Shown in pieces: positions 17,435 to 35,253 of a stretch of DNA of 64,000 nucleotides. The notes below the pieces were generated by a model. The model worked only from the letters and a program-made list of their open reading frames with translations, was not told where the DNA came from and did not search any database. Source of the stretch: a virus; the IMG/VR virus record IMGVR_UViG_3300009124_000001, one strand, 5' to 3'. Numbering within the stretch: position 1 is the stretch's first letter; the number at the start of each line of letters is the position of its first letter. The position numbers and the translations under genes are program-made.

Positions 17435-17936
17435 CACCATGTGGCGCAATCGCTCCAAGTGAGATACGAATATCTTTACTCGGAGGTTCACCATCATGTT
17501 CCATTAGTGAATCAAATACGATGATTCTTCCCTGCCTAAATGCTACCTTCTCACCATTTGCAAAGGTAGTATCACCATCCTCACCATATGCATGGTAGAT
17601 GATACTGGTAGCAGGACGATTGAAGTCAGTGTGTGTCTGTGACGTGTGCCCAGGGTTCTGTGCATTAACTAACAGTCTGTGGATGTGTGTTAGTGGCAGA
17701 TCCTTGCATATATCTTTGATGATACATTCATTGAAGTATGCAAAGAACCAATACCATGGAGTTTCGCTAGTAAACTCATTGTCTCTGATGACAGTATTGC
17801 CCCAGAATCGTGCCTTGCTGTAATCACCATATGGTGTGTTGTTGTAGTAGAAGGGGAAATCTGTCGAGAGATAGTTACCCACATCATCTACAATCCAATC
17901 AGGAAAGTATCCATCGATTACTCTAATATCACTCAT
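17418..17936 (-). CDS. 2OG-Fe(II) oxygenase (HxD..H)
   Basis: NAQ..HTD; GDTTF; FDSLMEH; RISL. Confidence 0.85.
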   Translation of the reverse strand: MSDIRVIDGYFPDWIVDDVGNYLSTDFPFYYNNTPYGDYSKARFWGNTVIRDNEFTSETPWYWFFAYFNECIIKDICKDLPLTHIHRLLVNAQNPGHTSQTHTDFNRPATSIIYHAYGEDGDTTFANGEKVAFRQGRIIVFDSLMEHDGEPPSKDIRISLGAIAPHGGVQFE

Positions 17937-18538
17937 AATTTAATACCTGATGTCAATTGAAAATTAGCAGACACTGTAATTCGTGCATTTGTATTATCAC
18001 CCTGTGGAGTAACTTGATGATGTAAGTATGATGGGAAGATGACTATATCACCTTCCTTCACATCTGGGAACCATGTATTTGTTGCTGGGTAGTGCTTACT
18101 GAAATACCCATGATGCACGTCTTGATTAGGATCGTAGAATACAAACTTACCATCCCTTTCAGGATCATACTGCATGAAGTAAGCACAACTGAATGCAGTG
18201 TTATTTCCACCACAATGTGTATGTATCTCTTGCGAATCACCCCGATGATATACATTTATCCATGCTTCTGACATTTTGATGGTCGAGGTGACGCGCCCAC
18301 CCAATTGGACGTGCATGTCCATGAGATTGTCAGAAATATAGTTGTTGAACAAATCCCATGAGAAATCATCCTGATTTGTATCACTATCAAAAGATGAGCG
18401 AACAGTACAGTTCCACTCATCGGGTTGTTTTAAGTTTGCTGTGGTGAGTTGATATGTCAGCATGGACTTAATATCCTCATGACGCTTCACCTCACCATGA
18501 TAATACCACTTTGGAAATAGATTCTGAACTTTACCCAT
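17933..18538 (-). CDS. 2OG-Fe(II) oxygenase (HxH..H)
   Basis: AWINVY..QEIHTH; FPSYLHHQV; RITVSAN. Confidence 0.85.
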   Translation of the reverse strand: MGKVQNLFPKWYYHGEVKRHEDIKSMLTYQLTTANLKQPDEWNCTVRSSFDSDTNQDDFSWDLFNNYISDNLMDMHVQLGGRVTSTIKMSEAWINVYHRGDSQEIHTHCGGNNTAFSCAYFMQYDPERDGKFVFYDPNQDVHHGYFSKHYPATNTWFPDVKEGDIVIFPSYLHHQVTPQGDNTNARITVSANFQLTSGIKL

Positions 18539-19805: not shown

Positions 19806-19862
19806 ATTATACACGAAAAAGGGGCGGCAACGCCACCCCCAACCAGTTCCACGACTGTCTAC
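19806..19862 (-). promoter_or_regulatory. Palindrome promoter element with embedded terminator hairpin
   Basis: GACAGT-CGTGG-AACTGG..TGTATAAT; GGGGTGGC-GTT-GCCGCCCC-TTTTT lies in the spacer. Confidence 0.65.
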
Positions 19863-20224
19863 TTATCTCCTAATGACACATTGTGGATTGTTTCGTTACC
19901 ACTATTCCAGAACTTCTGATTAGCATTGAGTAGTGCTTCTTCTACATCTTCCTTGAATGTGCGACGTGGAATGAACAATTCATCATCTGCATTCTTATAA
20001 TCTGGATGCGATTCCTTGAATGTGAACTCTACATCATACAGGAGTGATTGTGTGATGTCGTTGATAGTCTCAATGGAAGATGGTGGGAGAGATTGCCAAC
20101 CATATCCAGGGAACATATCATCCTTGACACGATCTAGCAGTGCTTTCTTACAATGCCAACGTGCATCAAACAGTGCAGTAAACTCTTCCCAATCTTCTTG
20201 GGATTTGAAATTAGGGATTGTCAT
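19859..20224 (-). CDS. Hypothetical protein
   Basis: ORF track. Confidence 0.8.
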   Translation of the reverse strand: MTIPNFKSQEDWEEFTALFDARWHCKKALLDRVKDDMFPGYGWQSLPPSSIETINDITQSLLYDVEFTFKESHPDYKNADDELFIPRRTFKEDVEEALLNANQKFWNSGNETIHNVSLGDK

Positions 20225-20636
20225 TGTTTAACTCCATGAATTGTTTAGCAGTAGCAATTTCTTCTTCTACTCGAATCTTCGCCATCATACGATCAGTTTC
20301 TTCCTCTGCTTGTTTCCAGAGTTCAAACTTATCGCGGAGATCTTCATCCATAGTCAGTTCATACTCTTTACAGACTTTGCGTTGGTCTGACTCATTAACA
20401 TAATCATTGAAGACCAGTGACATAGCACCACTACGAATAGATGTGGGATCCATACCTACACACAGCATGAACTTCTCAAACAGTTTGAAATACTGCTTGG
20501 CATTAAGATCAGCAGCAGGTGCTGTAATTATAAAATGTTCTTCTGGGAGGAAGTCATCAGTAGGGTAGGAAGATGATCCATAGGTGGGAGTCCAGGTAGA
20601 ATCAAATTTGAATTCAACAGTTGCATCATAACTCAT
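20211..20636 (-). CDS. Hypothetical protein
   Basis: ORF track. Confidence 0.8.
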   Translation of the reverse strand: MSYDATVEFKFDSTWTPTYGSSSYPTDDFLPEEHFIITAPAADLNAKQYFKLFEKFMLCVGMDPTSIRSGAMSLVFNDYVNESDQRKVCKEYELTMDEDLRDKFELWKQAEEETDRMMAKIRVEEEIATAKQFMELNNDNP

Positions 20637-20833
20637 GAGTATGCCTCAATAAATTCATCGAGAGTGAAACCTTCATCAGTGCCAGTTTCTTCAATCAACT
20701 CATCATAAGTGTACTCTTCAAGTTCCTTACGATACTCTTCTGGTGTTGCATCATCTGGTTCTGGGTCATCATGACAGAGATACTCCCACTCTGACACAAG
20801 TGCATTGATGAGTTGTTCAGTCGTGTACTTCAT
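20633..20833 (-). CDS. Hypothetical acidic protein
   Basis: YT.EQLI.AL..EWEYLCHDD. Confidence 0.8.
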   Translation of the reverse strand: MKYTTEQLINALVSEWEYLCHDDPEPDDATPEEYRKELEEYTYDELIEETGTDEGFTLDEFIEAYS

Positions 20834-20893
20834 TGTTTTTTAGATCATCAAGATACTGTTGAATGTAGTATGCCTTTATTTTATACCAATCAA

Positions 20894-21223
20894 TCATCGT
20901 TCGTCAATCGTAGGTAATAGTTCGTTGCCTGGGTGATCATTTGTCTTACCACGGTATGCTTTAACATGGTTGAAGTATGTATCATCAACCTCTAACTCAT
21001 CCCAGCAACTTTCAATAACAACCATACAACATTTGTTGGTTGGTCTTCGTGAACCAGGAGGATTGTCTTTCTCACTGACACAAATTAAGATGTGATTGTC
21101 ATCCAGGTATTCAATGTAACCCTCATGACCTCTCCAACGAACATGAGCGCCAACTGATAATGAGTTGACAATGTTTCTGATCTCTAATGCAGGTGCTTCT
21201 GAAATAAACAGGGGGGTAGTCAT
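20894..21223 (-). CDS. Hypothetical protein (SH3-like)
   Basis: LSVGAHVRWRGHEGYIEY..ILICV. Confidence 0.75.
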   Translation of the reverse strand: MTTPLFISEAPALEIRNIVNSLSVGAHVRWRGHEGYIEYLDDNHILICVSEKDNPPGSRRPTNKCCMVVIESCWDELEVDDTYFNHVKAYRGKTNDHPGNELLPTIDER

Positions 21224-21822
21224 AGAGTTAGATAAGATGTGGGGTTTCCAAAATCACCTCGGATCATGATATTGAATGCTAGTGAATACCTCCTGGCAGT
21301 GTCCAAATTGTTCTGAACATAGTGTACCAGATGAGATGGGAAGATCACAACCATACCGTCCACTGGCGTAAGTGTCCACTGGTTACTATTATACACATTT
21401 GTGTGTGCTTTGTGTGGTGAGATAACATCGTGCCTATTATCTACAAACACCAAGTCACCACAATTAGGATGAGTTCTCAGATACAATATACCTGAGAACA
21501 TAGAGTTTCTATGCATGTGCTCATTAGATTTCTCCAAGTATTGGTGTATATTGACCCATGAGCAAGGTGAATCAATACTATGTGATTCATCAATACCCAT
21601 TACACCATACACATATTCTCTGATGTGTGGTAATAGAAACTCTTTGATACTTGGCAGTTTGTTAATTACATCCTGGTCAACAGATTGACTACCTAATCCA
21701 GGACCTGCAATGTTTGCATATTCCCAATCAGCAATCTCATCAATCACATCAGGCATAGTCTCATCAACTGTGACATATACTGGTGATGAAAATAGGGGGA
21801 TGACATCAGTGGAAGTTTGCAT
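21220..21822 (-). CDS. 2OG-Fe(II) oxygenase (HxH..H)
   Basis: SWVN..HMHRNSMFSGILYL; FPSHLVHYV; RYSLAFN. Confidence 0.88.
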   Translation of the reverse strand: MQTSTDVIPLFSSPVYVTVDETMPDVIDEIADWEYANIAGPGLGSQSVDQDVINKLPSIKEFLLPHIREYVYGVMGIDESHSIDSPCSWVNIHQYLEKSNEHMHRNSMFSGILYLRTHPNCGDLVFVDNRHDVISPHKAHTNVYNSNQWTLTPVDGMVVIFPSHLVHYVQNNLDTARRYSLAFNIMIRGDFGNPTSYLTL

Positions 21823-22297
21823 TAATTAAGATCCTATTTTTGTGCTGTTTGGGAGAGTGTCCAGTGTGCATGTGTCTCCCATTAAATGTTAGGAGTCTAT
21901 TCTTTTTAGGTTGGACACGAACGAAGTCGTGATCACTCTTGTCTCCCAAAATAACAGTGTCGCCATCAGTATCGTTGACATAGTAGATACAAACAGTGTG
22001 TCTTTCGTCGCAGTCTACATGAAAATCATGCCTGTACCCCTCTGGATTATAGAGTGTCATATCAGCACGAACACGCAGACATTCCTCAGCAGCAACAGTT
22101 GTCTGCATTAGTTGTACCAGTGGAGCGAAATCTGGATCCCCCTCCACTGTCAACCAATGATTGAAACCATGTGACTGTATGTGTTTAGACCCACGAGTTA
22201 ATGTGTGCTGATAAAACCACGGAAACTCCCACCCCATGAGTATATCATGGATATGGGAGTGATAATCTGGGTCAAGAAAATCATCGATGATCCTCAT
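21806..22297 (-). CDS. 2OG-Fe(II) oxygenase (HxD..H)
   Basis: Start MRIIDDFL; FHVD; YYVNDTDGDT; FNGRHMHTG; RILINAN. Confidence 0.88.
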   Translation of the reverse strand: MRIIDDFLDPDYHSHIHDILMGWEFPWFYQHTLTRGSKHIQSHGFNHWLTVEGDPDFAPLVQLMQTTVAAEECLRVRADMTLYNPEGYRHDFHVDCDERHTVCIYYVNDTDGDTVILGDKSDHDFVRVQPKKNRLLTFNGRHMHTGHSPKQHKNRILINANFH

Positions 22298-22460
22298 GTC
22301 TGAGATGTAGGGTGGTCGCAATTTCATCAATTAACTTCCTAGTTCTAGGGGGCACTTCACCATTCTTTTGATAGTATTCTTTTTGTAGACTGAACAGTGC
22401 ATGTTTGAGTAACACTTTCTGTTCCTCGTTGAGCACCTGAGATTTAAGGAACATGGTCAT
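22281..22460 (-). CDS. Small hypothetical protein
   Basis: ORF track; start uncertain. Confidence 0.65.
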   Translation of the reverse strand: MTMFLKSQVLNEEQKVLLKHALFSLQKEYYQKNGEVPPRTRKLIDEIATTLHLRHEDHR

Positions 22461-22483
22461 AGACAGCAAGAGACCGTAACTAT

Positions 22484-23041
22484 TTAACGAACTCTGGGTT
22501 TGAAATTAACATTCATCGCGATTCTGTAACCTTCGGAGGGTGAACTCGATGCGTGTAACACATGACCAGCGAACACAATCATTTTGCCACGCTCAGGCGC
22601 AACGCGCAACTGGCAATTTGGAATCCTAACACTTCTTTCATCATTGAAGAGATAGGTGTCTCCGTCTGTATCATTAAGATACAGAAGGGCAGTTGTGTGT
22701 TCTTCTTCAAAGTCAACATGTGGCGTATGATGAGGCAAACCATCAGGTAATAACATACCCAATCTAACACGATAGATGTCTGTGAATTGTTGACCACAAT
22801 CGTCTGCAATCAGACGTAGAGCAGACTCAAACACATCATAGTATTGTGATGCTGGTTCATAGTCCATCACCAACACATGTGAGAATGATGAACTACTAAA
22901 CTCACCACCAAAAGGTATAGGACCATCAATGAATGTGGTGTCCTTAATAAAATACCATGGAAATCTTGTGCTACTGACTAACTCTTCGATCTGATCTAAG
23001 ATAACCTTAGGGAGTGGGGATCGAGTTGAACTCAATAGCAT
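22484..23041 (-). CDS. 2OG-Fe(II) oxygenase (HxD..H)
   Basis: FPWYF; PHVD; YLNDTDGDT; LHASSSP; RIAMNVN; start trimmed. Confidence 0.88.
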   Translation of the reverse strand: MLLSSTRSPLPKVILDQIEELVSSTRFPWYFIKDTTFIDGPIPFGGEFSSSSFSHVLVMDYEPASQYYDVFESALRLIADDCGQQFTDIYRVRLGMLLPDGLPHHTPHVDFEEEHTTALLYLNDTDGDTYLFNDERSVRIPNCQLRVAPERGKMIVFAGHVLHASSSPSEGYRIAMNVNFKPRVR

Positions 23042-23729
23042 ATTGCTTACGGTCGCTGGGTACGTCACGAGGATACATGCAAGGGATAGACATAGACAAT
23101 CGCTTACCACCTGGGAATGGTTTGTGATATGTTCTTGCTGGGATATACATTACATCGCCAGGTTGCAACACAGTATCTAGGGCAACAGTTAGTTCTCGCC
23201 CTTCTTTATTTGGTAAGTATGGTTCATCAGTCATCTCAATGAGAGCAGAACATCTCTCTTCGTAGACATTCCAGTGTGTCTCACCATCAATTTGACAGAT
23301 AAAGTTAGGTGGTAGATCCCAATGAGCACCAAACGATCTACTGCCTTGCTTAGCACTACCAAATATATGTGCATCACAGTTACAATCAAACATGTCTTCG
23401 ATATTCTCTAAGAGATTATCTACTGCTGGATTGTAATGACCATACTGTTCAATGATGAACGTATGACCTTCATTGATTGCTTGAAACAATTCACTCTTAT
23501 GTGGTACACCTTTCTCATACCATACTTCAAACTTCTCAGGTAACATTAAACGACGACCCTCAAAGTTGAGGACCTGAGTTCTATAATACCATGGATTATT
23601 GAAACAGTGCGTGACTGTATCCCAGTTCACATATTGTGTGGGATTGTCTAATGCACGACGCCACACCATTGGTTTATCACCACACTGGAAAATGTCAGGG
23701 TTGAGGAATGGTAGGAGTAGTTTGTTCAT
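23007..23729 (-). CDS. JmjC/cupin oxygenase (YcfD/ROXA-like)
   Basis: SFGAHWD..NFICQIDGETHW; LQPGDVMYIPARTYH; RLSMSIP. Confidence 0.88.
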   Translation of the reverse strand: MNKLLLPFLNPDIFQCGDKPMVWRRALDNPTQYVNWDTVTHCFNNPWYYRTQVLNFEGRRLMLPEKFEVWYEKGVPHKSELFQAINEGHTFIIEQYGHYNPAVDNLLENIEDMFDCNCDAHIFGSAKQGSRSFGAHWDLPPNFICQIDGETHWNVYEERCSALIEMTDEPYLPNKEGRELTVALDTVLQPGDVMYIPARTYHKPFPGGKRLSMSIPCMYPRDVPSDRKQYAIEFNSIPTP

Positions 23730-24400
23730 TTAAGTTCTGCAAATTCACCTTCGGTTGGATCTAACGGAAACCCTGCAACGTTCACACTGATAGCAATGCG
23801 TTCTTTCTTGTGATACGGCAACGTTCTATGTCTTAACCACGAAGGGAATATAACATAGTCAAACGTTTGTGTGTCCAATGTGTGCCAATCATAGCAGTAT
23901 TCGTTACAATCGTCACCCTCTCGTGACCAATCATCATATTCCATATGGAGAGGGCACATTCGATGGATTTGTTGTAGTGGATTCTCAAACTGCAACTGTC
24001 CACCATTCAGTTCCTTTTGCAAGTAATAAACACACGAGACGTGGGATTTACTCCTAGCACCGCCTATATGGGCGTGTAGACCCGTAGAGTCGCCTTCTGT
24101 GTGCAAATTTGCCCACATACTATCAATATAAAGATGCCAGTCTTTTCTATACTTTACTGTGTTGTTCCAATAGTCACGCACAGCATCTAAGAGTGGATGA
24201 GTGATCCAATCCATCTCAGGTTCTTCAAACAATGCTTTACCATCTTGAAACTCTGAGGTAGATTTACCTGTTTCTAATGCCCATCCACCTTTACATCTAT
24301 CAAACGCCTGCATTAAGAATGCATACGTCTCATTGAATTGATCATCAGTTGGTAGTATCTGACCCGTTACTACTGTCGTAGGAAATACTAGATGATTCAT
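23726..24400 (-). CDS. 2OG-Fe(II) oxygenase (HxH..H)
   Basis: MWANLH..HAH; SCVYYL; FPSWLRHRT; RIAISVN. Confidence 0.85.
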   Translation of the reverse strand: MNHLVFPTTVVTGQILPTDDQFNETYAFLMQAFDRCKGGWALETGKSTSEFQDGKALFEEPEMDWITHPLLDAVRDYWNNTVKYRKDWHLYIDSMWANLHTEGDSTGLHAHIGGARSKSHVSCVYYLQKELNGGQLQFENPLQQIHRMCPLHMEYDDWSREGDDCNEYCYDWHTLDTQTFDYVIFPSWLRHRTLPYHKKERIAISVNVAGFPLDPTEGEFAELK

Positions 24401-25058
24401 TTTGTTTAATAATGTCGAGCATGTTTTGTTTGTTTCTCACAGGTATGAAATTGAATGAGATACTTACACGTTCATCATCAGTTTCATTCTCTCGCACACC
24501 ATGAGCAACCCAAGCAGGGAATAGAAATAGTCTACCAGCAATAGGTGGGTAAGACCATGTTGAATGTGTATGTGGCACCTCTGCTGTACTCATGTCCTCA
24601 GATGTACCAATAGAATGAACTAAGAAACCCTCAGCAGCATTCTTATGGAATGTAATTCTTCCACACTCACCTTCGGGCACTTTAACATAGAAAGCACCAG
24701 ATATTACAGCACCTGGGTGTACATGTACTTCATTATATCCTCCCTTGCCATTGATATTGAACCATGCATTTGCATACTCAATAGTTGTATGGCAGGAACC
24801 ATAAGATCCGAACGCTTCTGTTGCCTTTGCTTTGATTTGTTGCAACAGTTTTTTGAACTCATCATCACCCAGACTCTCATCAGCAAGAATCTGTTCACCC
24901 ATAAAATCAGGGGACTGATAGTTCAGTAACCCCCGATTGCTTCGTGCTTTGGATGGCATTTCATGAGCGATATTATATGTAATATCCTCCATCTTTGCCA
25001 GATCAATGTCAAGATCAACCCACCATATTGGGGTGGGGAAGATATAATCAAGATTCAT
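24345..25058 (-). CDS. 2OG-Fe(II) oxygenase (HxH..H, TIGR02466-like)
   Basis: IFPTPIW; WFNIN..N..HVHPG..SGAFYV; FPAWVAHGV; RVSISFN. Confidence 0.9.
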   Translation of the reverse strand: MNLDYIFPTPIWWVDLDIDLAKMEDITYNIAHEMPSKARSNRGLLNYQSPDFMGEQILADESLGDDEFKKLLQQIKAKATEAFGSYGSCHTTIEYANAWFNINGKGGYNEVHVHPGAVISGAFYVKVPEGECGRITFHKNAAEGFLVHSIGTSEDMSTAEVPHTHSTWSYPPIAGRLFLFPAWVAHGVRENETDDERVSISFNFIPVRNKQNMLDIIKQNESSSISYDSSNGSDTTN

Positions 25059-25507
25059 TACTTAGTCTTGTTCAGATTAGCATCAGTTTCAGATTGATCT
25101 GATTCCCAGTTAGCATACTTTTCGTAACCAGGACGTGTGCGAACTTTGATCTTTTTACGTTGCTCTTGAAGTTCAGACTCAACCCATGGTTGAGGTTCTT
25201 CACCGAGAACCAATCGACGATACAGATTGATAGTTTCGAGACCACCTTCAATCTTAACCAGATCATCACGCATTTCATTCATTTTGGTGAAGTCAATACG
25301 TGTCTCTTGACGGTCAAAACTCATCGCAGAAACAGATGCTTGAAGATCAGAATACTCTCTGAATCTTTCACGATGTTGATACACAAGATTTTTCCACAGA
25401 TCATCCAGAGACTTGACTGCTTCCTCTTCACTATTCACCTCAGTGATAGTTTCAGGTTCCCACTCATCAATCGCCTCCTGATATTGATCAAGAATTTCCT
25501 CAGACAT
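25058..25507 (-). CDS. Hypothetical coiled-coil protein
   Basis: Tightly coupled between halogenase and oxygenase. Confidence 0.8.
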   Translation of the reverse strand: MSEEILDQYQEAIDEWEPETITEVNSEEEAVKSLDDLWKNLVYQHRERFREYSDLQASVSAMSFDRQETRIDFTKMNEMRDDLVKIEGGLETINLYRRLVLGEEPQPWVESELQEQRKKIKVRTRPGYEKYANWESDQSETDANLNKTK

Positions 25508-25509
25508 AA

Positions 25510-27093
25510 TTACTCCTTGTAAATCGTTTGTTTTAAGAACTCGTAACTTGACGGTAGTTTACTGCACCAATCATACATCTCCTTCTCCCATTCGTCAAAC
25601 CTGAGGTCTGCCGTCGCAATCTCCTGTTCATCAACTTCTGGGATTAGACCATTCTGTAATCGTTTAAGATGCAACGTATGCCTATTTATAGGACTGAACC
25701 CCATACCTGCTGCAATGTACCTTAGACCATCATTGTGTGCTGGATCACCTGCAAATTCATAGATAACATTCTTCTCTGATGCATATCTCATGAAAAGATT
25801 ATCTAATGCACCAGTAGAGAAATCATACTGAATATGATCAGATACTTCTTCCCAATACTTTGTCTGTCTAGCAGAGAAGGCATAGTGGGCAGCAATAAAG
25901 TTCTTGAATCCTTCAATCTCCAAGTCACACACTAAGTTTAGCATGTCAACTTCGACACGAGGAACAATACCTTCACGTCCAGCAAGAGTATTACATAGTC
26001 TCACGATCTGCTCATGTGTTGTGAGCAAACCAGTTGCTTCTAATGGTTCAACAAAACAATTAGATAGACCAACTGCACAGACATTCTTTACCCATGATCT
26101 CTTGTGCTTACCATTCTTGAATGGAACTTTTCTGAATGATGCTTCACCTGCTCTCTTACTACCTCTGGTCTTACAGAGATAATTGTAGAGTTCAAGTTCA
26201 GGATCATCAGTGAAGTCTTTGGAGTGAACATATCCAACACCAGATCTCTCCCACAGGGGAACATCCCACACCCAACCATTATCAATGGCAGTGCAGTTTG
26301 TGCTGTTTGTAATATCTTTCTCTTTGTCTTCGTGTGGCATGTGGCAGGTAACTGCCGTGTCATTGAGTAGACAACCACCATCATTTACATGGAAGGATAC
26401 AAACTCCTCACCCATGAATTTTTCAAGCAACAGTGACTTGAATCCTGTGCAATCAATATACAAATCATACTCTAACTTACGACCATCTGAGGTCTGTAAT
26501 GATTGTACCCACCCACGTTCATCTTTATGGCACACTTCTACATCGCCTTGAATATATTCAAGACCCATAGGTAGACACCAGTTCTCTTTCAACCACTGTC
26601 CAAACTTGATAGCATCCATATGGTATGCAGTATCTTGTTCAAACAAGAATGGTTTCTGATCTGTCATCTTGTTGTAGTGAGCAAGTTGCCCAACAAGATT
26701 ATGCAGACGTGCAAATGTGTTCCTAGTATATTTCTCTGGTTGCAGCAGATTGAGAGAAAACCACGACATCCAACCATGTGGACATAGATTTAGTCGCTCT
26801 TCTGCTGACCCGAAAGGATAATCCCAAGTTTCTCCTTTCTTGTAGAAATCATTGAATCGAATATTGACTTTATATGTGGATCCTGTATCTTTCATCCACA
26901 TGTGATCTTCTAAACCAAGGATGGCAAAGAAGTCATTGATCTGACCTAATGTAGATTCACCCACACCAATGGTGGGATAATTAGGTGACTCAATTAGTGA
27001 TGTTTTAATATGTGGGCAGAGTTTCAAAAGGGCGGCAGCGGTCATCCAACCAGCAGTGCCGCCCCCCACGATGAGGACATTACGAACGTGCAT
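25510..27093 (-). CDS. prnA: Flavin-dependent (tryptophan-type) halogenase
   Basis: GGGTAG; GVGEST; catalytic Lys TYKVNIRF; DCTGF; GWVWDVP; FVEPLEATG. Confidence 0.92.
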   Translation of the reverse strand: MHVRNVLIVGGGTAGWMTAAALLKLCPHIKTSLIESPNYPTIGVGESTLGQINDFFAILGLEDHMWMKDTGSTYKVNIRFNDFYKKGETWDYPFGSAEERLNLCPHGWMSWFSLNLLQPEKYTRNTFARLHNLVGQLAHYNKMTDQKPFLFEQDTAYHMDAIKFGQWLKENWCLPMGLEYIQGDVEVCHKDERGWVQSLQTSDGRKLEYDLYIDCTGFKSLLLEKFMGEEFVSFHVNDGGCLLNDTAVTCHMPHEDKEKDITNSTNCTAIDNGWVWDVPLWERSGVGYVHSKDFTDDPELELYNYLCKTRGSKRAGEASFRKVPFKNGKHKRSWVKNVCAVGLSNCFVEPLEATGLLTTHEQIVRLCNTLAGREGIVPRVEVDMLNLVCDLEIEGFKNFIAAHYAFSARQTKYWEEVSDHIQYDFSTGALDNLFMRYASEKNVIYEFAGDPAHNDGLRYIAAGMGFSPINRHTLHLKRLQNGLIPEVDEQEIATADLRFDEWEKEMYDWCSKLPSSYEFLKQTIYKE

Positions 27094-27100
27094 ATATTAA

Positions 27101-27640
27101 TCAAGCATCAGGGGCAGGTTGTTGTGCTTCGGGTGCGTACTTACCAAGACGAAACTCTCTCTGTGTATCATCATCGAGGTCAGATACACTCATCCAGGCG
27201 GGAATTTCTTCACCGTGGGGGAATGGTTCATCAGGCAATGCTTTAACCAGTTCAGTGCGTGTCTCACCAGTCATTTCATCAGTTACTGTAACCTCTTCAT
27301 ATTTTACAGTAGGTTGTGTCTCTCTTACAGTCTTGATATGCTCGTAGAACTTACCAGTCTTCGCTGCATCACCGAAGAGACCAGCATCAATATCCTTCCA
27401 GAGCATAGAAAGTTGCTCACCAGGATCGCCATATGCTACCACACGAAGCATTTCTGGATCATGATACTCAAAGTCAGGAATCCACTCACCAAGTTCTAAC
27501 TTCCAGTCGATAGTTGCATCGTCAGGAATATCGACCCATTTCATCGATGAACCAGGACCAGTGTAGATCTCAAACTCTTCGCCTGCTTCTACAATGTCTG
27601 TGATAAATCCGTCACAGCGGACAAGTGCTCTTTTTGTCAT
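27101..27640 (-). CDS. Putative tail fibre assembly/chaperone protein
   Basis: R..AY..GEQL.MLWKDI.AG..F...IK.V...P module, directly after fibre genes. Confidence 0.6.
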   Translation of the reverse strand: MTKRALVRCDGFITDIVEAGEEFEIYTGPGSSMKWVDIPDDATIDWKLELGEWIPDFEYHDPEMLRVVAYGDPGEQLSMLWKDIDAGLFGDAAKTGKFYEHIKTVRETQPTVKYEEVTVTDEMTGETRTELVKALPDEPFPHGEEIPAWMSVSDLDDDTQREFRLGKYAPEAQQPAPDA

Positions 27641-27649
27641 TGGTTTAGA

Positions 27650-28450
27650 TTAATCGAATTCGTAGACTACAACAATACCCTGGCGACCGTCACCACCACG
27701 CTCGGAGTTACGACCTGAGGAACCACCAGCACCATAGGCAGCGTGAGCGCGATGGCGCTGTGCCCATTGTTGCTGTCTATGTGATGTGGGTGAAGATCCA
27801 CCCCAGAAAGATGTACCACCGTGACCTAAACCAGGAGGATTTCTATGACCTTGGGATGAACCACCGTAGATTCTAACAGATCCTTGATTGGGGTTACCAC
27901 CAGTAGATCCGTCATGCTGTTGTCTACGGTTGGCACCTTGTCCACCACCAGATGAACAATAGTTGCCAAAAGAAGATGTCCCGCCGTTACCAGCACGACC
28001 AGAATAACCAGTACCACTACCGACACCACCAACAGTTACGGAGATAGAGTTAATGTTTTCCACATTAACAATGGTCTCAGTATGAGCACCAGCAGCGCCA
28101 GACTCACCATAACCTGATCCACCACCGCCACCACCAGTACACTTCACCCAGATACGCTTAATGCCGCTGGGTTTGTTCCAAGTGGAGTTGCCAGTGTAGA
28201 CAGAGATAGACTTAGGACCACCACCAGTTTGGATGGATGCCCAAGACATTGTACTGCCATTCGTGGACAGAAACTTACCAGATTGTCCAGACACAGACGG
28301 AATAACCTGTGCAGAACTACCAGCAATAGTTCCGTTAATGTTGATGTTAGAAACGGTAAGAGTACCGTTCACTGTAATAGATCCAGAACTGAGGTTTAGA
28401 CCACCAGAACCAGACAGGTCTCTAATAGAGGATACTTTTAGGGTACTCAT
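27650..28450 (-). CDS. Glycine-rich tail fibre/adhesin (paralogue B)
   Basis: MSTLKVSSI; GQSGKFLSTNG..SW; TWNKPSG..GGGGGG..GIVVVYEF. Confidence 0.8.
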   Translation of the reverse strand: MSTLKVSSIRDLSGSGGLNLSSGSITVNGTLTVSNININGTIAGSSAQVIPSVSGQSGKFLSTNGSTMSWASIQTGGGPKSISVYTGNSTWNKPSGIKRIWVKCTGGGGGGSGYGESGAAGAHTETIVNVENINSISVTVGGVGSGTGYSGRAGNGGTSSFGNYCSSGGGQGANRRQQHDGSTGGNPNQGSVRIYGGSSQGHRNPPGLGHGGTSFWGGSSPTSHRQQQWAQRHRAHAAYGAGGSSGRNSERGGDGRQGIVVVYEFD

Positions 28451-28473
28451 TGATTACTTGTCTCCTTCCTTGT

Positions 28474-28481
28474 TATTTATA
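28474..28481 (-). promoter_or_regulatory. T4-type late promoter
   Basis: Exact TATAAATA followed by AAGGAG RBS. Confidence 0.8.
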
Positions 28482-29285
28482 TCAAATAAATTCGTAGACA
28501 ACAATGATGCCTACACGACCATCACCTCCACGCTCACTGTTCCTAGCAGATGATCCACCAGCACCATAAGCAGCGTGTCCTCTATGACGTTGTGCCCATT
28601 GTTGTTGACGGTGTGCGGTTGGAGCAGAACCGCCCCAATATGAGTGACCACCATGACCTAGACCAGGAGGATTGCGGTGTCCCTGTGAGGATCCACCATA
28701 GATTCTGACTGAACCTTGGTTGGGAGTTCCACCAGTAGAACCTTCGTGCTGCTGACGACGGTTGGCACCTTGTCCACCACCAGATGAGCAATAGTTACCA
28801 AATGATGATGTACCACCGTTACCACCACGACCTTGATAGTTAGTGCCACCACCAGCGCCACCGACAGTAACACTAATCGAGTTGATGTTAGCAACATCTA
28901 CAAATGTCTCTGTGTGAGCACCAGCAGCACCTGATTCACCATAACCTGATCCACCACCGCCACCACCAGTACACATCACCCAGATACGTTTTACGCCTGA
29001 TGGTTTGTTCCAGGTAGAGTTACCATTATAGACAGAGATCGAATTAGGAATACCTAAGTTGATCGCATTTGCCTGCCAACTGATCGTCGAACCGTTGGTG
29101 TAAAGGAACCTACCAGAGTTACCACTCTGATTTGGAATAATATAACCAGAGGAACCAGAGATATTACCATTGATCACAATGTTTGTGACAGTGATAGTAC
29201 CGTTAGCAGTAATCGCTCCGTTCGAGAACGACATACCACCCTGATTATTCAGGTCCTTAACTTGTGCAACAGTAAGTCTAGTCAT
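28482..29285 (-). CDS. Glycine-rich tail fibre/adhesin (paralogue A)
   Basis: Collinear with 27650..28450. Confidence 0.8.
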   Translation of the reverse strand: MTRLTVAQVKDLNNQGGMSFSNGAITANGTITVTNIVINGNISGSSGYIIPNQSGNSGRFLYTNGSTISWQANAINLGIPNSISVYNGNSTWNKPSGVKRIWVMCTGGGGGGSGYGESGAAGAHTETFVDVANINSISVTVGGAGGGTNYQGRGGNGGTSSFGNYCSSGGGQGANRRQQHEGSTGGTPNQGSVRIYGGSSQGHRNPPGLGHGGHSYWGGSAPTAHRQQQWAQRHRGHAAYGAGGSSARNSERGGDGRVGIIVVYEFI

Positions 29286-29307
29286 TGTTAGAGGATCTTT
29301 CTTTTAT

Positions 29308-29865
29308 TTATTCAATAATAGGTGCTGGGCGCTCTGTCCCAGGTTCCAGATATTTCTGGTGTGCTGTCCATTCTTCATCGGTAGGATAATACCCAGGATG
29401 ATAGACCATTTGATTGACTTGTGCTCTCTCAAATGTATCAGGAGTATCGAATTGACCTCTCAGGATATGGAACTGAACAGTCTTTTCAATTTTCTCACCA
29501 GCATGAGTACACCAGAATGTGACGCTGTAAGTATTGTTATCTTCGATTCTTTCACCAGCAATAAATCCAGTAATAGAACACTGCTCAATAATCTGTTGGT
29601 CAGACTTGATAGGTCCCTTAGTTTCTTTTGTGAAGACTATTGCTTTGGTAGCATCACGGACAACAGTAATACCATACCACAGATCATCGTACTCTGTAAA
29701 GGTAGCACCATTAGTACCATCTTTCAAGAACGCAATGTCACAATTCACCTGAGGGAAATGGAACATTGTCCTAGATACAAAACATGTGCCTTCATCTAAA
29801 TCAAAGACACATGCAAATTTATCATGTCGATCATTATATTTGATCGTATCTCTATCTTCAATCAT
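29308..29865 (-). CDS. Hypothetical protein
   Basis: ATGA overlap with Gly-rich gene. Confidence 0.75.
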   Translation of the reverse strand: MIEDRDTIKYNDRHDKFACVFDLDEGTCFVSRTMFHFPQVNCDIAFLKDGTNGATFTEYDDLWYGITVVRDATKAIVFTKETKGPIKSDQQIIEQCSITGFIAGERIEDNNTYSVTFWCTHAGEKIEKTVQFHILRGQFDTPDTFERAQVNQMVYHPGYYPTDEEWTAHQKYLEPGTERPAPIIE

Positions 29866-30794
29866 ATTCTGTACCCAATAACAATTCTACCCACGCCACC
29901 ATTTCTGTTACCAGCACTGTTACGGAATGGGTGACTACTTTGTGCCACTGTACCGTAGTTTCCTGCTTCTGTAAAACTATTGAGTGCTGCACCACTAACG
30001 TAGTTAGATCCGCCCCCGCCACCAGCAGCGCCATGACAATCGCAACCAGGGTCACCACCAACGTTTCCACCACGGTATCCCCCGCCGCCACCACCGCCGC
30101 CAGAGCGGTCGCCACCAGGGCGTCCATTACTACCCACGCCACCATTTGCCTGAGCACAGCAACCGCCACCACCAGCACCACAGGATCCACCCTGTCCGTT
30201 CTGGTTTCCAGCGCCTCCCTGTCCAGCACCGCCACAACCTTCGCGACCGCCACCGCCGCCGCCTGCACCACCTACAATCCAGATGTTGCCATATGAACGA
30301 GAACCATTGTAGACAACACTACCAGCACCACCGCCACCACCACCAGCAGAGCAACCGCTACATCCTGCATATCTTCCTTGACCACCGTTGCACCACGATG
30401 ATCCATTACTTCCAGCACCACCTGCACCCCAGCAACCATGGCATCCAGAACCATTGCCACCACCGCCGCCGACGTTAGTGTATAAAGTTTGACCAGCAGT
30501 TACCTCAAATTCACCATATGCATAACCACCTGAACCACCAGCAGCACCACCTTGACCACCATTGCCACCAGCAGCACCCCATGCCCAAATGTAGACTGTA
30601 CCCACACCAGTACCCGTCACATCTTGCACACTAAATGTACTAGATCCAGAAGACTGCCAGGTATGAAGTTGTAAGTCATACCCATTGTCAGGATGAGTAC
30701 CAGTGATTACAGATCCACCATTACCAGTAACAAATGGTGTGCTAGATCCGCCACTTCCACCCAGAGAGGCAATTTTGTTAGTTCCGATCGGCAT
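29862..30794 (-). CDS. Gly/Cys-rich adhesin-like protein
   Basis: WGAAGG..GGSGGY..VGGGG polyglycine domain ending GGVGRIVIGY; 11 Cys. Confidence 0.75.
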   Translation of the reverse strand: MPIGTNKIASLGGSGGSSTPFVTGNGGSVITGTHPDNGYDLQLHTWQSSGSSTFSVQDVTGTGVGTVYIWAWGAAGGNGGQGGAAGGSGGYAYGEFEVTAGQTLYTNVGGGGGNGSGCHGCWGAGGAGSNGSSWCNGGQGRYAGCSGCSAGGGGGGAGSVVYNGSRSYGNIWIVGGAGGGGGGREGCGGAGQGGAGNQNGQGGSCGAGGGGCCAQANGGVGSNGRPGGDRSGGGGGGGGYRGGNVGGDPGCDCHGAAGGGGGSNYVSGAALNSFTEAGNYGTVAQSSHPFRNSAGNRNGGVGRIVIGYRI

Positions 30795-31660
30795 TACGGT
30801 TCGTACTTAGTAATTGTTCCAAAGCAATACCATGTGCTTCCATCAAGGAAGAACATGAACTGATAACCATCCCAGTGACCACCAGGAGTCAGATCAGTTG
30901 TATTGTAAGAGAGTGCTGCTGTTTGGTTATTAATTCTCACCGAGGTAATAGAACCATTACCATTCTGTTGTTGGATCATAACAGAGGCAGCATACATCAT
31001 GCCACCTTCTTCTGGAACATTAGAGAAGTTAAGGGTAAAGTTACCGTTATAACTTGTCGGGTTATTAGTAGAGAATACTGATGCCTGTGAGTGATCAACA
31101 GTTACGACACTTGCTTTGGCAAAGGAAATATGTCTTTCTTTTGTTTGACCAAATTCAAATGTAGAACCTGGGATCATCCTCAGGTGATTATTAACAGCAA
31201 CGTTATCATAATATCTATAAGAAGATAGATCTTCGTCAGCACCAATCAGTGTCCATGTTGCACCACTCTCAATGGTAACTGTAAAACCATTGGCAATGGT
31301 AATAGGCGCAGCAGAGAAACCGTTAGTAAATTCAGTGCCATTATTAGCAGTAGGACCAACAGTGAGGTTCTCACTAATTGTGGTTCCATTAGTTCTGATA
31401 ATAGAATCTTCACCAACAGAAGGTCCACCACCACCAACATCATCCCATCCAGGAGTACCAGGACCGTTGACATCAGGTAGATAACCCTGAATCATCTTTT
31501 CGGTAGAGTTGAAAACAATCGTACCGAGAGCAACTGTACCCAGAGCGTTTATCTGTGACTGATTCAGGATAGGCAGGTTGATCTGCTCTGTAACAGTGAG
31601 CGCAGTAATGATCGCTCTTGTTACAGCATCAATCTGATTTCCTATAATTTTGGTGGTCAT
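30794..31660 (-). CDS. Tail fibre-related structural protein
   Basis: GTIVFNST; IRTNGTTISENLT..NGFSA.PITI..G.TVTI..GATW. Confidence 0.7.
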   Translation of the reverse strand: MTTKIIGNQIDAVTRAIITALTVTEQINLPILNQSQINALGTVALGTIVFNSTEKMIQGYLPDVNGPGTPGWDDVGGGGPSVGEDSIIRTNGTTISENLTVGPTANNGTEFTNGFSAAPITIANGFTVTIESGATWTLIGADEDLSSYRYYDNVAVNNHLRMIPGSTFEFGQTKERHISFAKASVVTVDHSQASVFSTNNPTSYNGNFTLNFSNVPEEGGMMYAASVMIQQQNGNGSITSVRINNQTAALSYNTTDLTPGGHWDGYQFMFFLDGSTWYCFGTITKYEP

Positions 31661-31680: not shown

Positions 31681-34600
31681 TTAGATAACGAGTTCACGAA
31701 TGTGGATAGTGTCACCAGTTGCAGGAGGTGTAGCGACAGAGAAGTCAACAGCATTACCTGTGACTGTGTAGTCTACGCCAGGAATTTGTGCAACACCATT
31801 TAAGAATACCAAAACAGAATATGCTGTGTGTCCAGGAGAGATGTTGAATGATTGAGATACACCATCTCCATTATATGTCACACCTGCATTACCATTAGCA
31901 ATACCAGTTGCTAATGAGTATTTATCAGAGCAACCATACTTGCCTGTCACGTCGATGTCACCATCAAAGAATGTATTGCCACTAACCTTCAATCGGTTAG
32001 AAGCATCTGGTGCCATACCAATACCATAATTAGTAACACCACTGAATCTATTGGATGTGATCGGAGTAGTATCACTCAGACCAAACTTGTACCATGTGCC
32101 AGAATCATAAATCCAACCAATAGATTGACCAGGAGTCCAGTCAATGTTGTAGCAAATGTCTCCACTGTTGAATGCAAGACCAGAATCAAGATCAGGCAAT
32201 CCAGCAACTTCCTCAGCGAGGAATGTCTGTCTCAGCACAGTACCATCGTCGTTAGAGTAGGTGAAGTTCAGAGACTGAATCTGATTCTGGGATGTAACTT
32301 TCTTCTGGAAGGTCACAGGACCAGAGAATACAGATTCCAACTGGTTAGATGCACCACCGATAACGGTGAGTTTATCAGTCAGCACCAGTTCAGAGAATGT
32401 CTCAATCGTTGTACCTTCTTCGCCCAACACGTTAAGTTGTGCAATATCTTCGTTAGTGATCTGACCTGTAACAGGGTTGATGACTTGGTTACCAACGAAC
32501 AGTTCACCGTCAGAGTTCACACCAGAGTAGTATGCAACACCTGCTGCTTCTTTGAGTGACTGAGACAGTCTAACCTGCTCGGGGGAGAGAACCTCAACCT
32601 GTGTAGATGGGAATGCAGTTGAATAGTTACCAGGACCGAAACCAAGGTATTCAAACGTGTGACCAGATGCACGAAGAATCGAATAACGACGAAGTTCAAT
32701 ACTCAGAGGAGCAACAGAGTTGTCAGGATTCAACTGTAACGGAATCATTCTCTCTTCTTCATCACCCAAACGTGCTGTCACAACAATGTTAGACAGGGTG
32801 TTTGTTGTAGTGGTGTATCCAAGATTGTTCTCCAATTCTTGCAGGAAGAACTGTGCAGTCTCCTTAGTAATAGATAACTGAGTATCTTCATTAGGTGTAG
32901 GAGTTGCACCATCAGTAGTTCTAACCAGACCCAGAACCTCATTGTCTGCAATAGACACGGCAGCGGCAGGGTCAGCAACAGGGTTATCTCTGTCGAATGC
33001 AGGATAGATGTCTACTGTCTGCTGAGAGAACTCAAAATCATCGAAATTAGAGGTGATAGGAGATACCGACGCAGACAGAAGTGTCAGGTAGTAAATACCA
33101 TCAGTCTCACCAATCACAAACTCTTGGAATGTCTCTACATCATAGATGTAGTATGTCTTAGAGTATGCAGGTGAGTTAGTTTCAGATGATCTAGGTTGCA
33201 GAACGAAACCAGTGATCGGAGGACGAGGAATCGGGAATGCATCCTTATCCAGAACATAACGGAAACGATAAGTTCTGTCATTCAGGTCACGAGCATCGGG
33301 CACACGACGGATGAACGTTGTCGGTGTGAATCCAAGGTTCTGATATAGAGAGTTCGCTTGCAGTGTGGTGTAGATAGTGTTGTTGGCGTTATCTACTTGC
33401 AGATACCATTGACCACGGTTGGTGTCATATTTGATTGGGTTATCATCATCACCTGCTCTTGTGCCTGTTACATCAGGACCAGAAGGTGTAATGTCTGCAT
33501 AGTGTGTAGTGGGTTCAGACGCGCCAGACGCGACAAGTGCAACATAGACTCTATCGGGAGTATTGACATCATCGCGTCTTGCGCCAATAGTATAACCCTG
33601 AATCTTGCTGGGTGGTCTACCCAGTTCAGATGTATATCCATACAGATAGAGACGAGTATTGTCTGCTTCTGCACGAGTTGCATTAATATCAATAGTCACC
33701 CAGTTGATTGAAATCTCATCAACATCATCAAGAGACTTGGGTGGAATGATATGAGTGATCTGACCTGCTTTATCTTTGGTGAATGCACTCGCCTTGAAAC
33801 CTTTCGATCTCAGTGATGTATTACCGAAATTGGAGTTCGAGTTAGTAATAGAGAGGTCACCACCACTATCAGCGAAGAAGTGATCACCGAATCCCACAGC
33901 GAAGACGGACACCACCTGAATAAACGAATCATTACTTGCTTTAATGTGAGCATGTCTCCATCCCTTACGATACTCTGCGAGACCGTTGATATGAGCACCA
34001 GAACCTGCTGCTTGTGGTTCATAGTTACCCGATGATGGGTTATAAACTACGAACGCACGGTCATCTTTTTGCAGGGAGATTCCAGTGAACTGTGCAACCA
34101 CCATCGATTTGAAACCAGTAGCACGCGAACCATCAGCGTGCATACCGTTGATACCCCACACAGAACGTAGGGACATGTTAAACACATATGGTGATGCAGA
34201 GTCAACTGTATCGATCTCAACTTTCACCAAGATGTTGGAACCGATAGCATTACCTGACGGTTCTGCTGACATCTGATAGGTGAACTGATTACCTTGGGCA
34301 GATGTTACCAGGAACGATCCATTATAGAGGAGTTTATCCTGCTCAGTAGGACCATTAACGCCAGAAATATTAACAGCGACACCCACGGAGAATCCATGAT
34401 TCTTCGGATTGCCGAGTTCGTCAACAGTAAATGCCGTAGCAGTTTGTCCATTTCTGATAATCTGCGAGATAGCAAATTCGTCCGAAATCGGACCAACAAT
34501 TCTGTTTTCTTCGATTCTTGCTTGCAACTGGTCCTGTGCAACAACACCAGAGGAGTCAGGAATCGTAGCATATGCTTTCGAGATCTTCTGGTAGTACAGA

Positions 34601-35253
34601 TTCAGATCTTCTACGTTAGCAAACTCAAAGCAAGTGAGTTTGTGGTGAGAGAAGTTCGGAGCAATAGTTGCAATGTCATCGCCACGATAGTAGACACCAT
34701 TGGTATCACCATCGAAGAAAGATGCCTGCCAGAAGTAACAACCACCTGTTAGGTTAAAGATCGCAGAAGCAGTAGGTTCATTAGTAGCAGTAATACCGAG
34801 ACTACCCTGTACTGTGGGATAAGGGACATATTTCGGAATGAACTTGGTTCGACGTAGGTCCGAACCAACAACAGAAGCACCACGAGGGACAATAATACCA
34901 CCGCGAGTTGAATTAAACTTATAAAGAACATTGCTACTACTCGTTAGATCAAAGTTAGTATTAACATCAAATGGTTGAACATCATTATAGTCAGCAACGC
35001 CAGGTCTGTTATCCAGAACGTAGTCAGAAGGATACAGATAGATCGAGAATGCGTCAAATTCGTCATTACTCAGACCGACACGATACGAGAAACGTGCCAC
35101 TTCAAGGAAGGCACGTTGCAGCGTCTTGAACGGACGCAATGCCGAGTTACCTCGGTTATCATATGCGTCCGATGCATCGAAGTCGTCTGGGTTGACGTAG
35201 ATAATACGTCCCGTACGGGACGTAATGATATTTTTAAGACGAGTAAGTGCCAT
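31681..35253 (-). CDS. Tail fibre/tailspike-like virion protein
   Basis: IYVNPDD.DASD..N.GNS..RPFKT.QRA; GSDLRRT; C-terminal VFLNGVAQ.PG.DYTV. Confidence 0.8.
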   Translation of the reverse strand: MALTRLKNIITSRTGRIIYVNPDDFDASDAYDNRGNSALRPFKTLQRAFLEVARFSYRVGLSNDEFDAFSIYLYPSDYVLDNRPGVADYNDVQPFDVNTNFDLTSSSNVLYKFNSTRGGIIVPRGASVVGSDLRRTKFIPKYVPYPTVQGSLGITATNEPTASAIFNLTGGCYFWQASFFDGDTNGVYYRGDDIATIAPNFSHHKLTCFEFANVEDLNLYYQKISKAYATIPDSSGVVAQDQLQARIEENRIVGPISDEFAISQIIRNGQTATAFTVDELGNPKNHGFSVGVAVNISGVNGPTEQDKLLYNGSFLVTSAQGNQFTYQMSAEPSGNAIGSNILVKVEIDTVDSASPYVFNMSLRSVWGINGMHADGSRATGFKSMVVAQFTGISLQKDDRAFVVYNPSSGNYEPQAAGSGAHINGLAEYRKGWRHAHIKASNDSFIQVVSVFAVGFGDHFFADSGGDLSITNSNSNFGNTSLRSKGFKASAFTKDKAGQITHIIPPKSLDDVDEISINWVTIDINATRAEADNTRLYLYGYTSELGRPPSKIQGYTIGARRDDVNTPDRVYVALVASGASEPTTHYADITPSGPDVTGTRAGDDDNPIKYDTNRGQWYLQVDNANNTIYTTLQANSLYQNLGFTPTTFIRRVPDARDLNDRTYRFRYVLDKDAFPIPRPPITGFVLQPRSSETNSPAYSKTYYIYDVETFQEFVIGETDGIYYLTLLSASVSPITSNFDDFEFSQQTVDIYPAFDRDNPVADPAAAVSIADNEVLGLVRTTDGATPTPNEDTQLSITKETAQFFLQELENNLGYTTTTNTLSNIVVTARLGDEEERMIPLQLNPDNSVAPLSIELRRYSILRASGHTFEYLGFGPGNYSTAFPSTQVEVLSPEQVRLSQSLKEAAGVAYYSGVNSDGELFVGNQVINPVTGQITNEDIAQLNVLGEEGTTIETFSELVLTDKLTVIGGASNQLESVFSGPVTFQKKVTSQNQIQSLNFTYSNDDGTVLRQTFLAEEVAGLPDLDSGLAFNSGDICYNIDWTPGQSIGWIYDSGTWYKFGLSDTTPITSNRFSGVTNYGIGMAPDASNRLKVSGNTFFDGDIDVTGKYGCSDKYSLATGIANGNAGVTYNGDGVSQSFNISPGHTAYSVLVFLNGVAQIPGVDYTVTGNAVDFSVATPPATGDTIHIRELVI

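Follow-up and report, generated by a model that had tools for sequence, protein, structure and literature searches.

To our knowledge, VirX1 of Syn10 is the only viral halogenase that has been characterized. Here, we analyze a gene of the VirX1 family together with its neighbors in a 64,000-nucleotide (nt) stretch of viral DNA, IMG/VR virus record IMGVR_UViG_3300009124_000001 (hereafter, the window), where it belongs to a gene cassette at positions 21220-30794 that also encodes two predicted glycine-rich (Gly-rich) fiber tips, a candidate fiber chaperone, and six oxygenases. VirX1 itself forms a trimer whose active site is unusually open, and it has no associated pathway or known natural substrate (PMC8407142). 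An enzyme array of this kind was described in Syn9 by Iyer, Abhiman, de Souza, and Aravind in 2010, who listed ten dioxygenases, a MINA/NO66-like protein (gp49), and two halogenases and proposed a role in organohalogen secondary metabolism (PMC2938197). The same authors put forward collagen-like and tail-collar proteins as substrates of co-encoded bacterial dioxygenases but drew no connection between the Syn9 array and the fiber genes (PMC2938197). The 2-oxoglutarate (2OG) oxygenases that cyanophages carry in multiple copies have gone unexplained since the first genomes; 2OG/NtcA-linked, nitrogen-stress roles (Sullivan et al. 2010) and DNA repair (Weigele et al.) have been proposed (PMC3037559), and purified virions of S-SCSM2R were found to contain a 2OG oxygenase (PMC12801897). 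As to fibers, the closest described system is that of Pam3, in which gp24 makes up a trimeric tip that combines a TNF-like with a glycine-rich domain and is similar to the gp38 adhesin of S16. The corresponding chaperone, gp25, grips the fiber via an N-terminal β-sandwich in a 3:3 complex with gp24 and is not found in virions (PMC9608196).

Nucleotide matches place the window in a T4-like marine cyanomyovirus near the Synechococcus phage S-WAM1 (Kyanoviridae, Sokavirus), which is 89% identical across 70% of the stretch 21220-30794; S-SZBM1 gives a 76% nucleotide match to the same stretch, and both phages keep the gene order of the cassette. In S-WAM1 (KU686210), the order is reproduced by genes P090810_027-041, whose proteins are 80-98% identical to those of the window. 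However, at the cassette site, the last PF13759 oxygenase (window 21220-21822) has no counterpart in S-WAM1, whose record annotates most of the cassette genes as hypothetical. The order in Syn9 also matches, running from the fiber and gp35-like genes through the Gly-rich gp38/gp39 and the chaperone-like gp40 to the halogenases and oxygenases. The Syn9/Syn10 neighborhood (Syn9 gp38-gp54) shares with the window the tandem distant dioxygenases, the MINA/NO66-like JmjC protein, and the type of halogenase. The two loci nevertheless differ in content, as Syn9 has two halogenases and ten dioxygenases while the window has one and six, and their proteins are just 35-54% identical. Furthermore, the gene behind the Syn9 halogenases is gp43 (dUTPase fold, conserved Cys), whereas the window carries at this position an unrelated open reading frame (ORF) of 149 amino acids (aa), which found no match by tblastn against the Syn9 locus. 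Thus, the enzyme island has been known since 2010, and the window is closely related to a genome already published. What is new is the identification of a fiber-tip and chaperone pair and the one-way, unit-like linkage of this pair with the enzymes. Our literature search found no paper proposing fiber modification by the halogenase or the oxygenases.

The genes of the cassette, in the direction of their transcription, are as follows.

28482..29285 (-): predicted Gly-rich fiber-tip protein A (GlyA), 267 aa; PF21722, 40.7 bits; phrog_863, E 6e-61
[quoted passage not shown]
27101..27640 (-): Tfa/gp25-like chaperone candidate, 179 aa, 9 nt downstream of GlyB; phrog_1787
25510..27093 (-): VirX1-family flavin-dependent halogenase, 527 aa; PF04820 (Trp_halogenase), E 6e-93
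25058..25507 (-): acidic, helix-rich ORF of 149 aa, found conserved in related loci behind the halogenase; unmatched in Pfam and PHROG
24345..25058 (-): PF13759 oxygenase, HxH..H and RxS motifs; Pfam, 87.5 bits
23726..24400 (-): PF13759 oxygenase, HxH..H; Pfam, 50.6 bits
23007..23729 (-): JmjC-only oxygenase, 240 aa, MINA/NO66/YcfD clade; PF08007 (JmjC_2), 62.5 bits, E 4e-17
22484..23041 (-): PF13640 oxygenase, HxD..H; Pfam, 29.7 bits
22281..22460 (-): small conserved helical ORF, 59-62 aa; phrog_712
21806..22330 (-): PF13640 oxygenase, HxD..H; Pfam, 32.6 bits
21220..21822 (-): PF13759 oxygenase, HxH..H; Pfam, 69.6 bits

Gene identities were assigned by Pfam and PHROG scans of the ORFs of the window, and motifs were read in the translations. 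The Pfam cut-offs were 27 for PF13759 and PF13640 and 22 for JmjC_2. For the PF13640 oxygenase at 22484..23041, translation more likely starts at the ATG of position 23041, although the longest ORF opens with a GTG at 23110. An earlier note on this stretch had named these genes and read them as a tightly packed late operon whose enzymes tailor the fiber. All of the named genes were recovered in the order and at the coordinates that it gave, all on the (-) strand, and the junctions between them either overlap or leave gaps of at most 31 nt.

GlyA and GlyB are paralogs (77% identical); for PF21722, which has a cut-off of 24.3, the scores of the two proteins are 34.4 and 40.7 bits. Both contain the motifs GHRNPPGLGHGG and HRQQQWAQRHR.HAAY, which the earlier note had singled out as conserved loops, and throughout the family, the glycine runs are separated by stretches with His, Tyr, Trp, and Glu residues that are invariant or nearly so. 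Although a sequence search with GlyB against solved structures returned no match, its AlphaFold2 (AF2) model, built with 37 relatives, reached a predicted local distance difference test (pLDDT) score of 83, rising above 90 across residues 80-266. The best Foldseek match of this model was the Pam3 fiber gp24 (7ypx_A; E 1e-8, template modeling score 0.52, 26% identity), followed by the Bxb1 tail tip and then the glycine-rich domains of ALK/LTK. Similar to gp24, GlyB combines a TNF-like with a glycine-rich part and is followed by a chaperone gene. It differs in its N-terminal anchor, which is poorly modeled (pLDDT 54-63) and has no long helix, and Pam3 has neither a halogenase nor oxygenases. The assignment of the Gly-rich proteins to the fiber-tip fold is thus a structural prediction, but a well-supported one. 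Compared with a group of related loci (L010-L026), GlyA, GlyB, and the large fiber protein of the window are 86-93% identical while the helicases share just 57-64%. In the same comparison, the chaperone (52-65%) and the halogenase (67-69%) diverge faster than the fiber proteins. The slow divergence of the Gly-rich and fiber genes suggests either a recent exchange of the fiber region or strong constraint.

The 179-aa protein encoded behind GlyB gave only chance-level matches when its profile was searched against solved structures. Its AF2 model (pLDDT 90) found as its top match the chaperone gp25, which is the other chain of the Pam3 entry 7ypx. Residues 1-57 superimpose on the β-sandwich formed by residues 3-58 of gp25 with a Z score of 4.8 and a root mean square deviation of 2.5 over 51 residues, and the match to Tfa of Mu had a Z score of 3.0. 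Four helices are predicted at residues 62-108, as in the layout of gp25, in which helices also follow the β-sandwich, but they did not align; the match is modest and confined to the first domain. The model thus gives moderate support to a fiber chaperone of the Tfa/gp25 type. Because of the matches to Pam3 gp24 and gp25 and the published Pam3 work (PMC9608196), the terms "adhesin" and "chaperone-like" used in the earlier note appear reasonable.

The halogenase belongs to the VirX1 family by sequence. It scores 312.7 bits against PF04820 (cut-off 21) and aligns over residues 3-525 with VirX1 of Syn10 (6qgm; E 4e-107, ~39% identity). Its motifs comprise GGGTAG at residues 10-15 (the FAD motif GxGxxG), the catalytic Lys K75, WVWDVP at 274-279, and the catalytic Glu E349. 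In 18 diverse homologs, K75, W274, W276, and E349 are invariant, and G10, G12, G15, and P279 are nearly so. The Lys, the Glu, and the GxGxxG and WxWxIP-type motifs are thus common to both enzymes, although the halogenase of the window represents a different sub-lineage and is present in a single copy. A complex prediction of the halogenase with residues 75-266 of GlyB, run without controls, scored 0.00, a value that weighs on neither side of the question of binding. Other arrangements occur in IMG/VR: loci L075/L076 and L111 carry three tandem halogenases of widely differing lineages (26-40% identical to the query) behind three Gly-rich genes, with an oxygenase sitting between the chaperone and the first halogenase.

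We assessed the linkage of these genes by tblastn of 50,697 phage records and in IMG/VR loci collected by the chaperone profile, by the fiber gene, and by the halogenase. The Gly-rich, chaperone, and halogenase genes (the last at least 37.8% identical) were found in the same 20 of the 50,697 phage records, which represent eleven named phages from several genera. The JmjC gene was present in 19 of these 20 and in just 8 other records; for comparison, the helicase occurs in 419. The chaperone profile retrieved 75 IMG/VR loci with identities of 31-76%, in which the nearest upstream match was a Gly-rich gene in 69 of 69 cases (1-3 copies) and the nearest downstream match was a halogenase in 63 of 65 (1-3 copies). 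Oxygenases followed in all 49 of 49 loci and JmjC in 47 of them. The order was unchanged wherever the flank sufficed in the 80 loci collected via the fiber gene. The earlier note had suggested a check of whether fiber and enzyme genes co-occur across genomes; their linkage is far from random. Mirror trees of fiber and enzymes would be uninformative on this point, as linked genes have a common history of recombination.

Several comparisons at a single site indicate how the block is gained and lost. The genes that lie upstream of GlyA in the window are as follows.

31681..35253 (-): large core tail-fiber protein, 1190 aa, the upstream boundary of the cassette; phrog_529, PHROG E 0
30794..31660 (-): Syn9 gp35-like fiber-associated protein, 288 aa; phrog_29506, E 1e-180
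29862..30794 (-): Gly/Cys-rich protein, 310 aa, upstream of the Gly-rich genes; phrog_1589, E 9e-16
29308..29865 (-): 185-aa protein without a Pfam or PHROG family, traveling with the Gly/Cys-rich gene in related loci

The large fiber protein has homologs in 461 phage records, while the Gly/Cys-rich gene is restricted to a subset of related loci. The gp35-like protein has a conserved N terminus, found also in S-RIM8 and Syn19, and a variable C terminus. At the corresponding site of S-RIM8 and Syn19, the fiber gene, the gp35-like N terminus, and the helicase are retained and a single oxygenase lies between fiber and helicase, with the Gly-rich, chaperone, halogenase, and JmjC genes all absent. 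A second contrast is provided by S-CREM1, which carries the cassette, and S-H38, its sister in a published tree of 30 core genes, which has neither the Gly-rich nor the chaperone genes. In the published table for S-CREM1, the flanking ORFs best match S-H38, whereas ORF66-79 best match S-WAM1, Syn9, or uncultured phages; the best matches of the S-CREM1 cassette ORFs fall in other genera. Because of the absence from S-RIM8 and Syn19, the contrast between S-CREM1 and S-H38, and this pattern of best matches, the cassette behaves like a single accessory unit, exchanged or lost as a whole. Outside phages, the Gly-rich subfamily was found at one locus among 185,579 bacterial and archaeal genomes (L243, CAYVOK010000041.1), which holds the full cassette. 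This 24-kb contig, filed under a metagenome-assembled genome (MAG) of an uncultured Acidimicrobiaceae, has the complete cyanomyovirus block from fiber to oxygenases and most likely comes from a phage and was binned with this MAG by mistake. Thus, an independent context for the Gly-rich genes is lacking beyond these phages. Two genome types go under the name S-RIM44, with the cassette present in records of ~197 kb and only a distant halogenase, located elsewhere, in Syn1-like records of ~193 kb.

The transcription signals and the downstream end of the predicted unit are as follows.

35294 (-): late-like motif AATAAATA, 40 nt upstream of the large fiber gene
29305 (-): late-like motif AATAAATA, 19 nt upstream of GlyA
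28474..28481 (-): exact T4-type late promoter motif TATAAATA, 23-24 nt upstream of the GlyB ATG
25683..25690 (-): second exact TATAAATA, a putative promoter, within the 3′ end of the halogenase gene, 176 nt ahead of the next start
22481..22488 (-): late-like motif GTTAAATA, which overlaps the upstream oxygenase's stop codon, 20 nt ahead of the small ORF
19859..21223 (-): four small ORFs (109, 66, 141, and 121 aa) with overlapping junctions; phrog_8681, phrog_734, phrog_6458, phrog_10289
19820..19840 (-): the sole strong intrinsic terminator, 9 pairs (7 G-C) followed by TTTTT; next comes the TATAAT heading the helicase unit

The motif TATAAATA occurs 7 times in the window against 1.8 expected, a count reached by 0 of 100 shuffles. 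The motifs before GlyA, the large fiber gene, and the small ORF are weaker than the exact form. Matches resembling σ70 promoters were not above chance (44 versus 40.1 ± 6.3 in shuffled sequence). Both the exact promoter ahead of GlyB and the lack of a σ70 promoter or terminator between the genes, as described in the earlier note, are thus borne out. Because the sole strong terminator stands at 19840-19820, the predicted unit extends beyond 21220 and probably runs through the four small ORFs.

As a proxy for timing, we counted late motifs in the 100 nt preceding each distinct gene start of the collected loci. The exact TATAAATA precedes 47 of 170 GlyB-type, 25 of 115 chaperone, and 11 of 214 halogenase genes, mostly at 19-28 nt from the start, and none of 13 helicases. 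The relaxed form NTAAATA precedes 71 of 76 fiber, 52 of 214 halogenase, and 19 of 24 small-ORF genes, while it stands before just 1-5% of the oxygenase genes. These counts make late expression likely for the fiber, the chaperone, and often the halogenase. The published expression study of P-HM2 does not mention the cassette genes.

With regard to the oxygenases, the two PF13640 proteins have the canonical HxD/E..H triad (HVD..H). The three PF13759 proteins depart from it, having HVH, HAH, or HMH together with a distal H, which amounts to a 3-His variant, and an RxS-type motif is present in all five. The nearest solved chains of the PF13759 proteins, 3bvc and 2rg4, are structural-genomics entries of unknown function. 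The PF13640 enzymes show a weak likeness to prolyl hydroxylases (21806-22330 versus EGLN1, E 0.1). The JmjC protein carries an HWD..H triad, and its nearest solved relatives are NO66 (E 3e-6), MINA53, and YcfD, with values ranging to E 5e-3; the kinship to protein hydroxylases that the earlier note had pointed out is therefore seen here as well. The phage protein shares the JmjC core and its HxD..H triad with the ribosomal-protein hydroxylases YcfD/RoxA, NO66, and MINA53. However, the matches are confined to residues 70-219, the ribosomal oxygenase chains measure 373-489 aa, and the phage enzyme consists of the catalytic core only, without their dimerization and winged-helix domains. The PF13640 HxD..H oxygenases are named "DNA endonuclease V" or denV in RefSeq (Syn9, P-RSM6, S-H38), in PHROG (phrog_274), and in the older T4-GC100 annotation. 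Because Pfam assigns them to the 2OG-Fe(II) oxygenases, this name appears to be a propagated misannotation.

We propose that the cassette is the S-WAM1-type copy of an accessory unit found between the core tail-fiber gene and the helicase in some T4-like cyanophages. This unit would encode two paralogous fiber tips, their dedicated chaperone, the halogenase, and six distantly related Fe(II) oxygenases. Transcription of the block would be late, starting at T4-type late promoters that precede the fiber, the chaperone, and, in relatives, the halogenase, and ending at one terminator. The enzymes most likely modify a protein made at the same time, with the conserved His/Trp/Tyr/Arg/Pro-bearing loops of the Gly-rich tips as the prime candidate substrate. 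In chemical terms, aromatic side chains would then be halogenated and His, Arg, Pro, or Asn residues hydroxylated. The late cotranscription of the oxygenases, the protein nature of the substrate, and its identity with the fiber are all points that we infer, and that the fiber tips are what the cassette enzymes act on is a possibility to which we lean only tentatively. The more general claim, that Gly/His-rich fiber tips are the natural substrates of VirX1-family viral halogenases, is doubtful. There is a parallel in symmetry, since VirX1 is a trimer (PMC8407142) and Pam3-type fibers and chaperones form trimers as well (PMC9608196). The one-way, unit-like linkage names a concrete candidate substrate of the halogenase in the cultured phages S-WAM1, Syn9, and P-TIM40. 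If the proposal is true, seawater halides would give rise to iodinated or brominated and hydroxylated receptor-binding proteins, a virion chemistry undescribed for any phage. Modified fibers would represent a new phage route to tune adsorption or stability and would tie ocean halide chemistry to infection; if the fibers are not modified, the block would be an accessory enzyme island with another target.

A number of observations weigh against this proposal. The dependence runs one way, from the Gly-rich genes to the halogenase and not in reverse. Among halogenase-centered IMG/VR loci with at least 3 kb upstream (n = 56), the Gly-rich and chaperone genes are present in 36 and missing from 20. 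In several of these 20 loci, runs of oxygenase genes stand directly before the halogenase; one locus lies behind a different fiber of 1596 aa and one behind a late sigma factor. Among cultured phages, S-H38 has a distant halogenase and oxygenases without Gly-rich genes, and S-B64 carries a VirX1-like halogenase behind the SbcCD genes, a recombination module. A tree built from 163 halogenases has at least 6 changes of the Gly-rich context. Gene order is generally conserved in this phage family, which makes adjacency by itself a weak argument, and the cassette records are not independent samples. GlyA and GlyB are 86-98% identical among phages with helicases 57-88% identical, which is unusual for a receptor-binding tip engaged in an arms race, and VirX1 halogenates many free small aromatics in vitro (PMC8407142). 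The late operon of the earlier note stands only in part. Late-type motifs recur before the fiber, chaperone, and halogenase genes, but none of ~430 oxygenase genes is preceded by its own copy of TATAAATA, and late expression of the oxygenases therefore rests on read-through. Last, four more PF13759 oxygenases are found singly among the small genes beyond the helicase, at 9002-9637, 11214-11840, 15344-15943, and 17933-18538, all on the (-) strand.

The in vitro acceptance of free aromatics by VirX1 would also fit enzymes that make or alter a small molecule, an amino acid-derived or other aromatic metabolite within infected cells, with the vicinity of the fiber being only a tolerated accessory site. 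This is what the organohalogen metabolism argued for the Syn9 array would imply, and tandem unrelated dioxygenases are typical of biosynthetic clusters (PMC2938197); the halogenase/oxygenase arrays without Gly-rich genes point in the same direction. On the other hand, the Pfam and PHROG scans detected in the block neither a scaffold-forming enzyme (nonribosomal peptide synthetase, polyketide synthase, or ATP-grasp) nor an exporter. Furthermore, a small-molecule product leaves unexplained why the Gly-rich and chaperone genes have a constant halogenase neighbor, and the time of virion assembly is an odd one for starting a metabolite pathway, and we consider this explanation somewhat unlikely. 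If the substrate is a protein, it might still be one other than the fiber tip: the enzymes could act on host translation or photosynthesis, in the manner of ribosomal oxygenases and EF-Tu prolyl hydroxylases, or on other virion proteins. The clade of the JmjC protein, which is that of the ribosomal-protein hydroxylases, and the weak prolyl-hydroxylase likeness of the PF13640 enzymes would agree with such targets, as would the oxygenases of the same families elsewhere in the genome, the 2OG oxygenase in purified S-SCSM2R virions (PMC12801897), and again the enzyme arrays lacking Gly-rich genes. However, at 240 aa, the JmjC protein is without the accessory domains of the 373- to 489-aa ribosomal oxygenases, and the tight one-way linkage from Gly-rich gene to halogenase is left unexplained, so we regard targets of this kind as unlikely.

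The cassette might also be no functional system at all but a set of unrelated auxiliary genes for 2OG/nitrogen stress or for DNA or RNA repair, gathered at the permissive end of a late fiber operon and inherited together. The published proposals of 2OG/NtcA-linked and repair roles (PMC3037559) and the multiple copies scattered over each genome speak for such a collection, and the family-wide conservation of order makes adjacency weak evidence to the contrary. Yet, gain and loss affect the block as a whole and at one fixed site, the gene order persists even where the chaperone is just 31% identical, every copy retains the catalytic motifs, and a halogenase has no connection to 2OG handling or repair. 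We therefore judge a chance gathering to be quite improbable.

The earlier note, which likewise had the fiber as the substrate, had likened the block to a cluster for ribosomally synthesized and post-translationally modified peptides (RiPPs). This analogy fails because the block lacks a precursor peptide, which would have to be short and consist of a leader and a variable core. We considered the ORF of 22281-22460 for this role and rejected it, since it encodes a conserved helical protein without a variable core, and neither a protease nor a recognition-element family was detected by the Pfam and PHROG scans of the cassette.

Counting the single PF13759 copies, a stretch of 16 kb in the window holds at least ten genes of the oxygenase type. 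One of the single oxygenases beyond the helicase is adjoined by a gene whose 175-aa product has a phage tail lysozyme domain (PF18013; 15918-16445, (-) strand). The terminator hairpin and the TATAAT stand directly ahead of the helicase (window 19806-19840), and TATATT hexamers without such a hairpin precede the genes at ~15121 and ~17377. This TATAAT/TATATT pattern suggests a repeated promoter cassette of the small-gene region.

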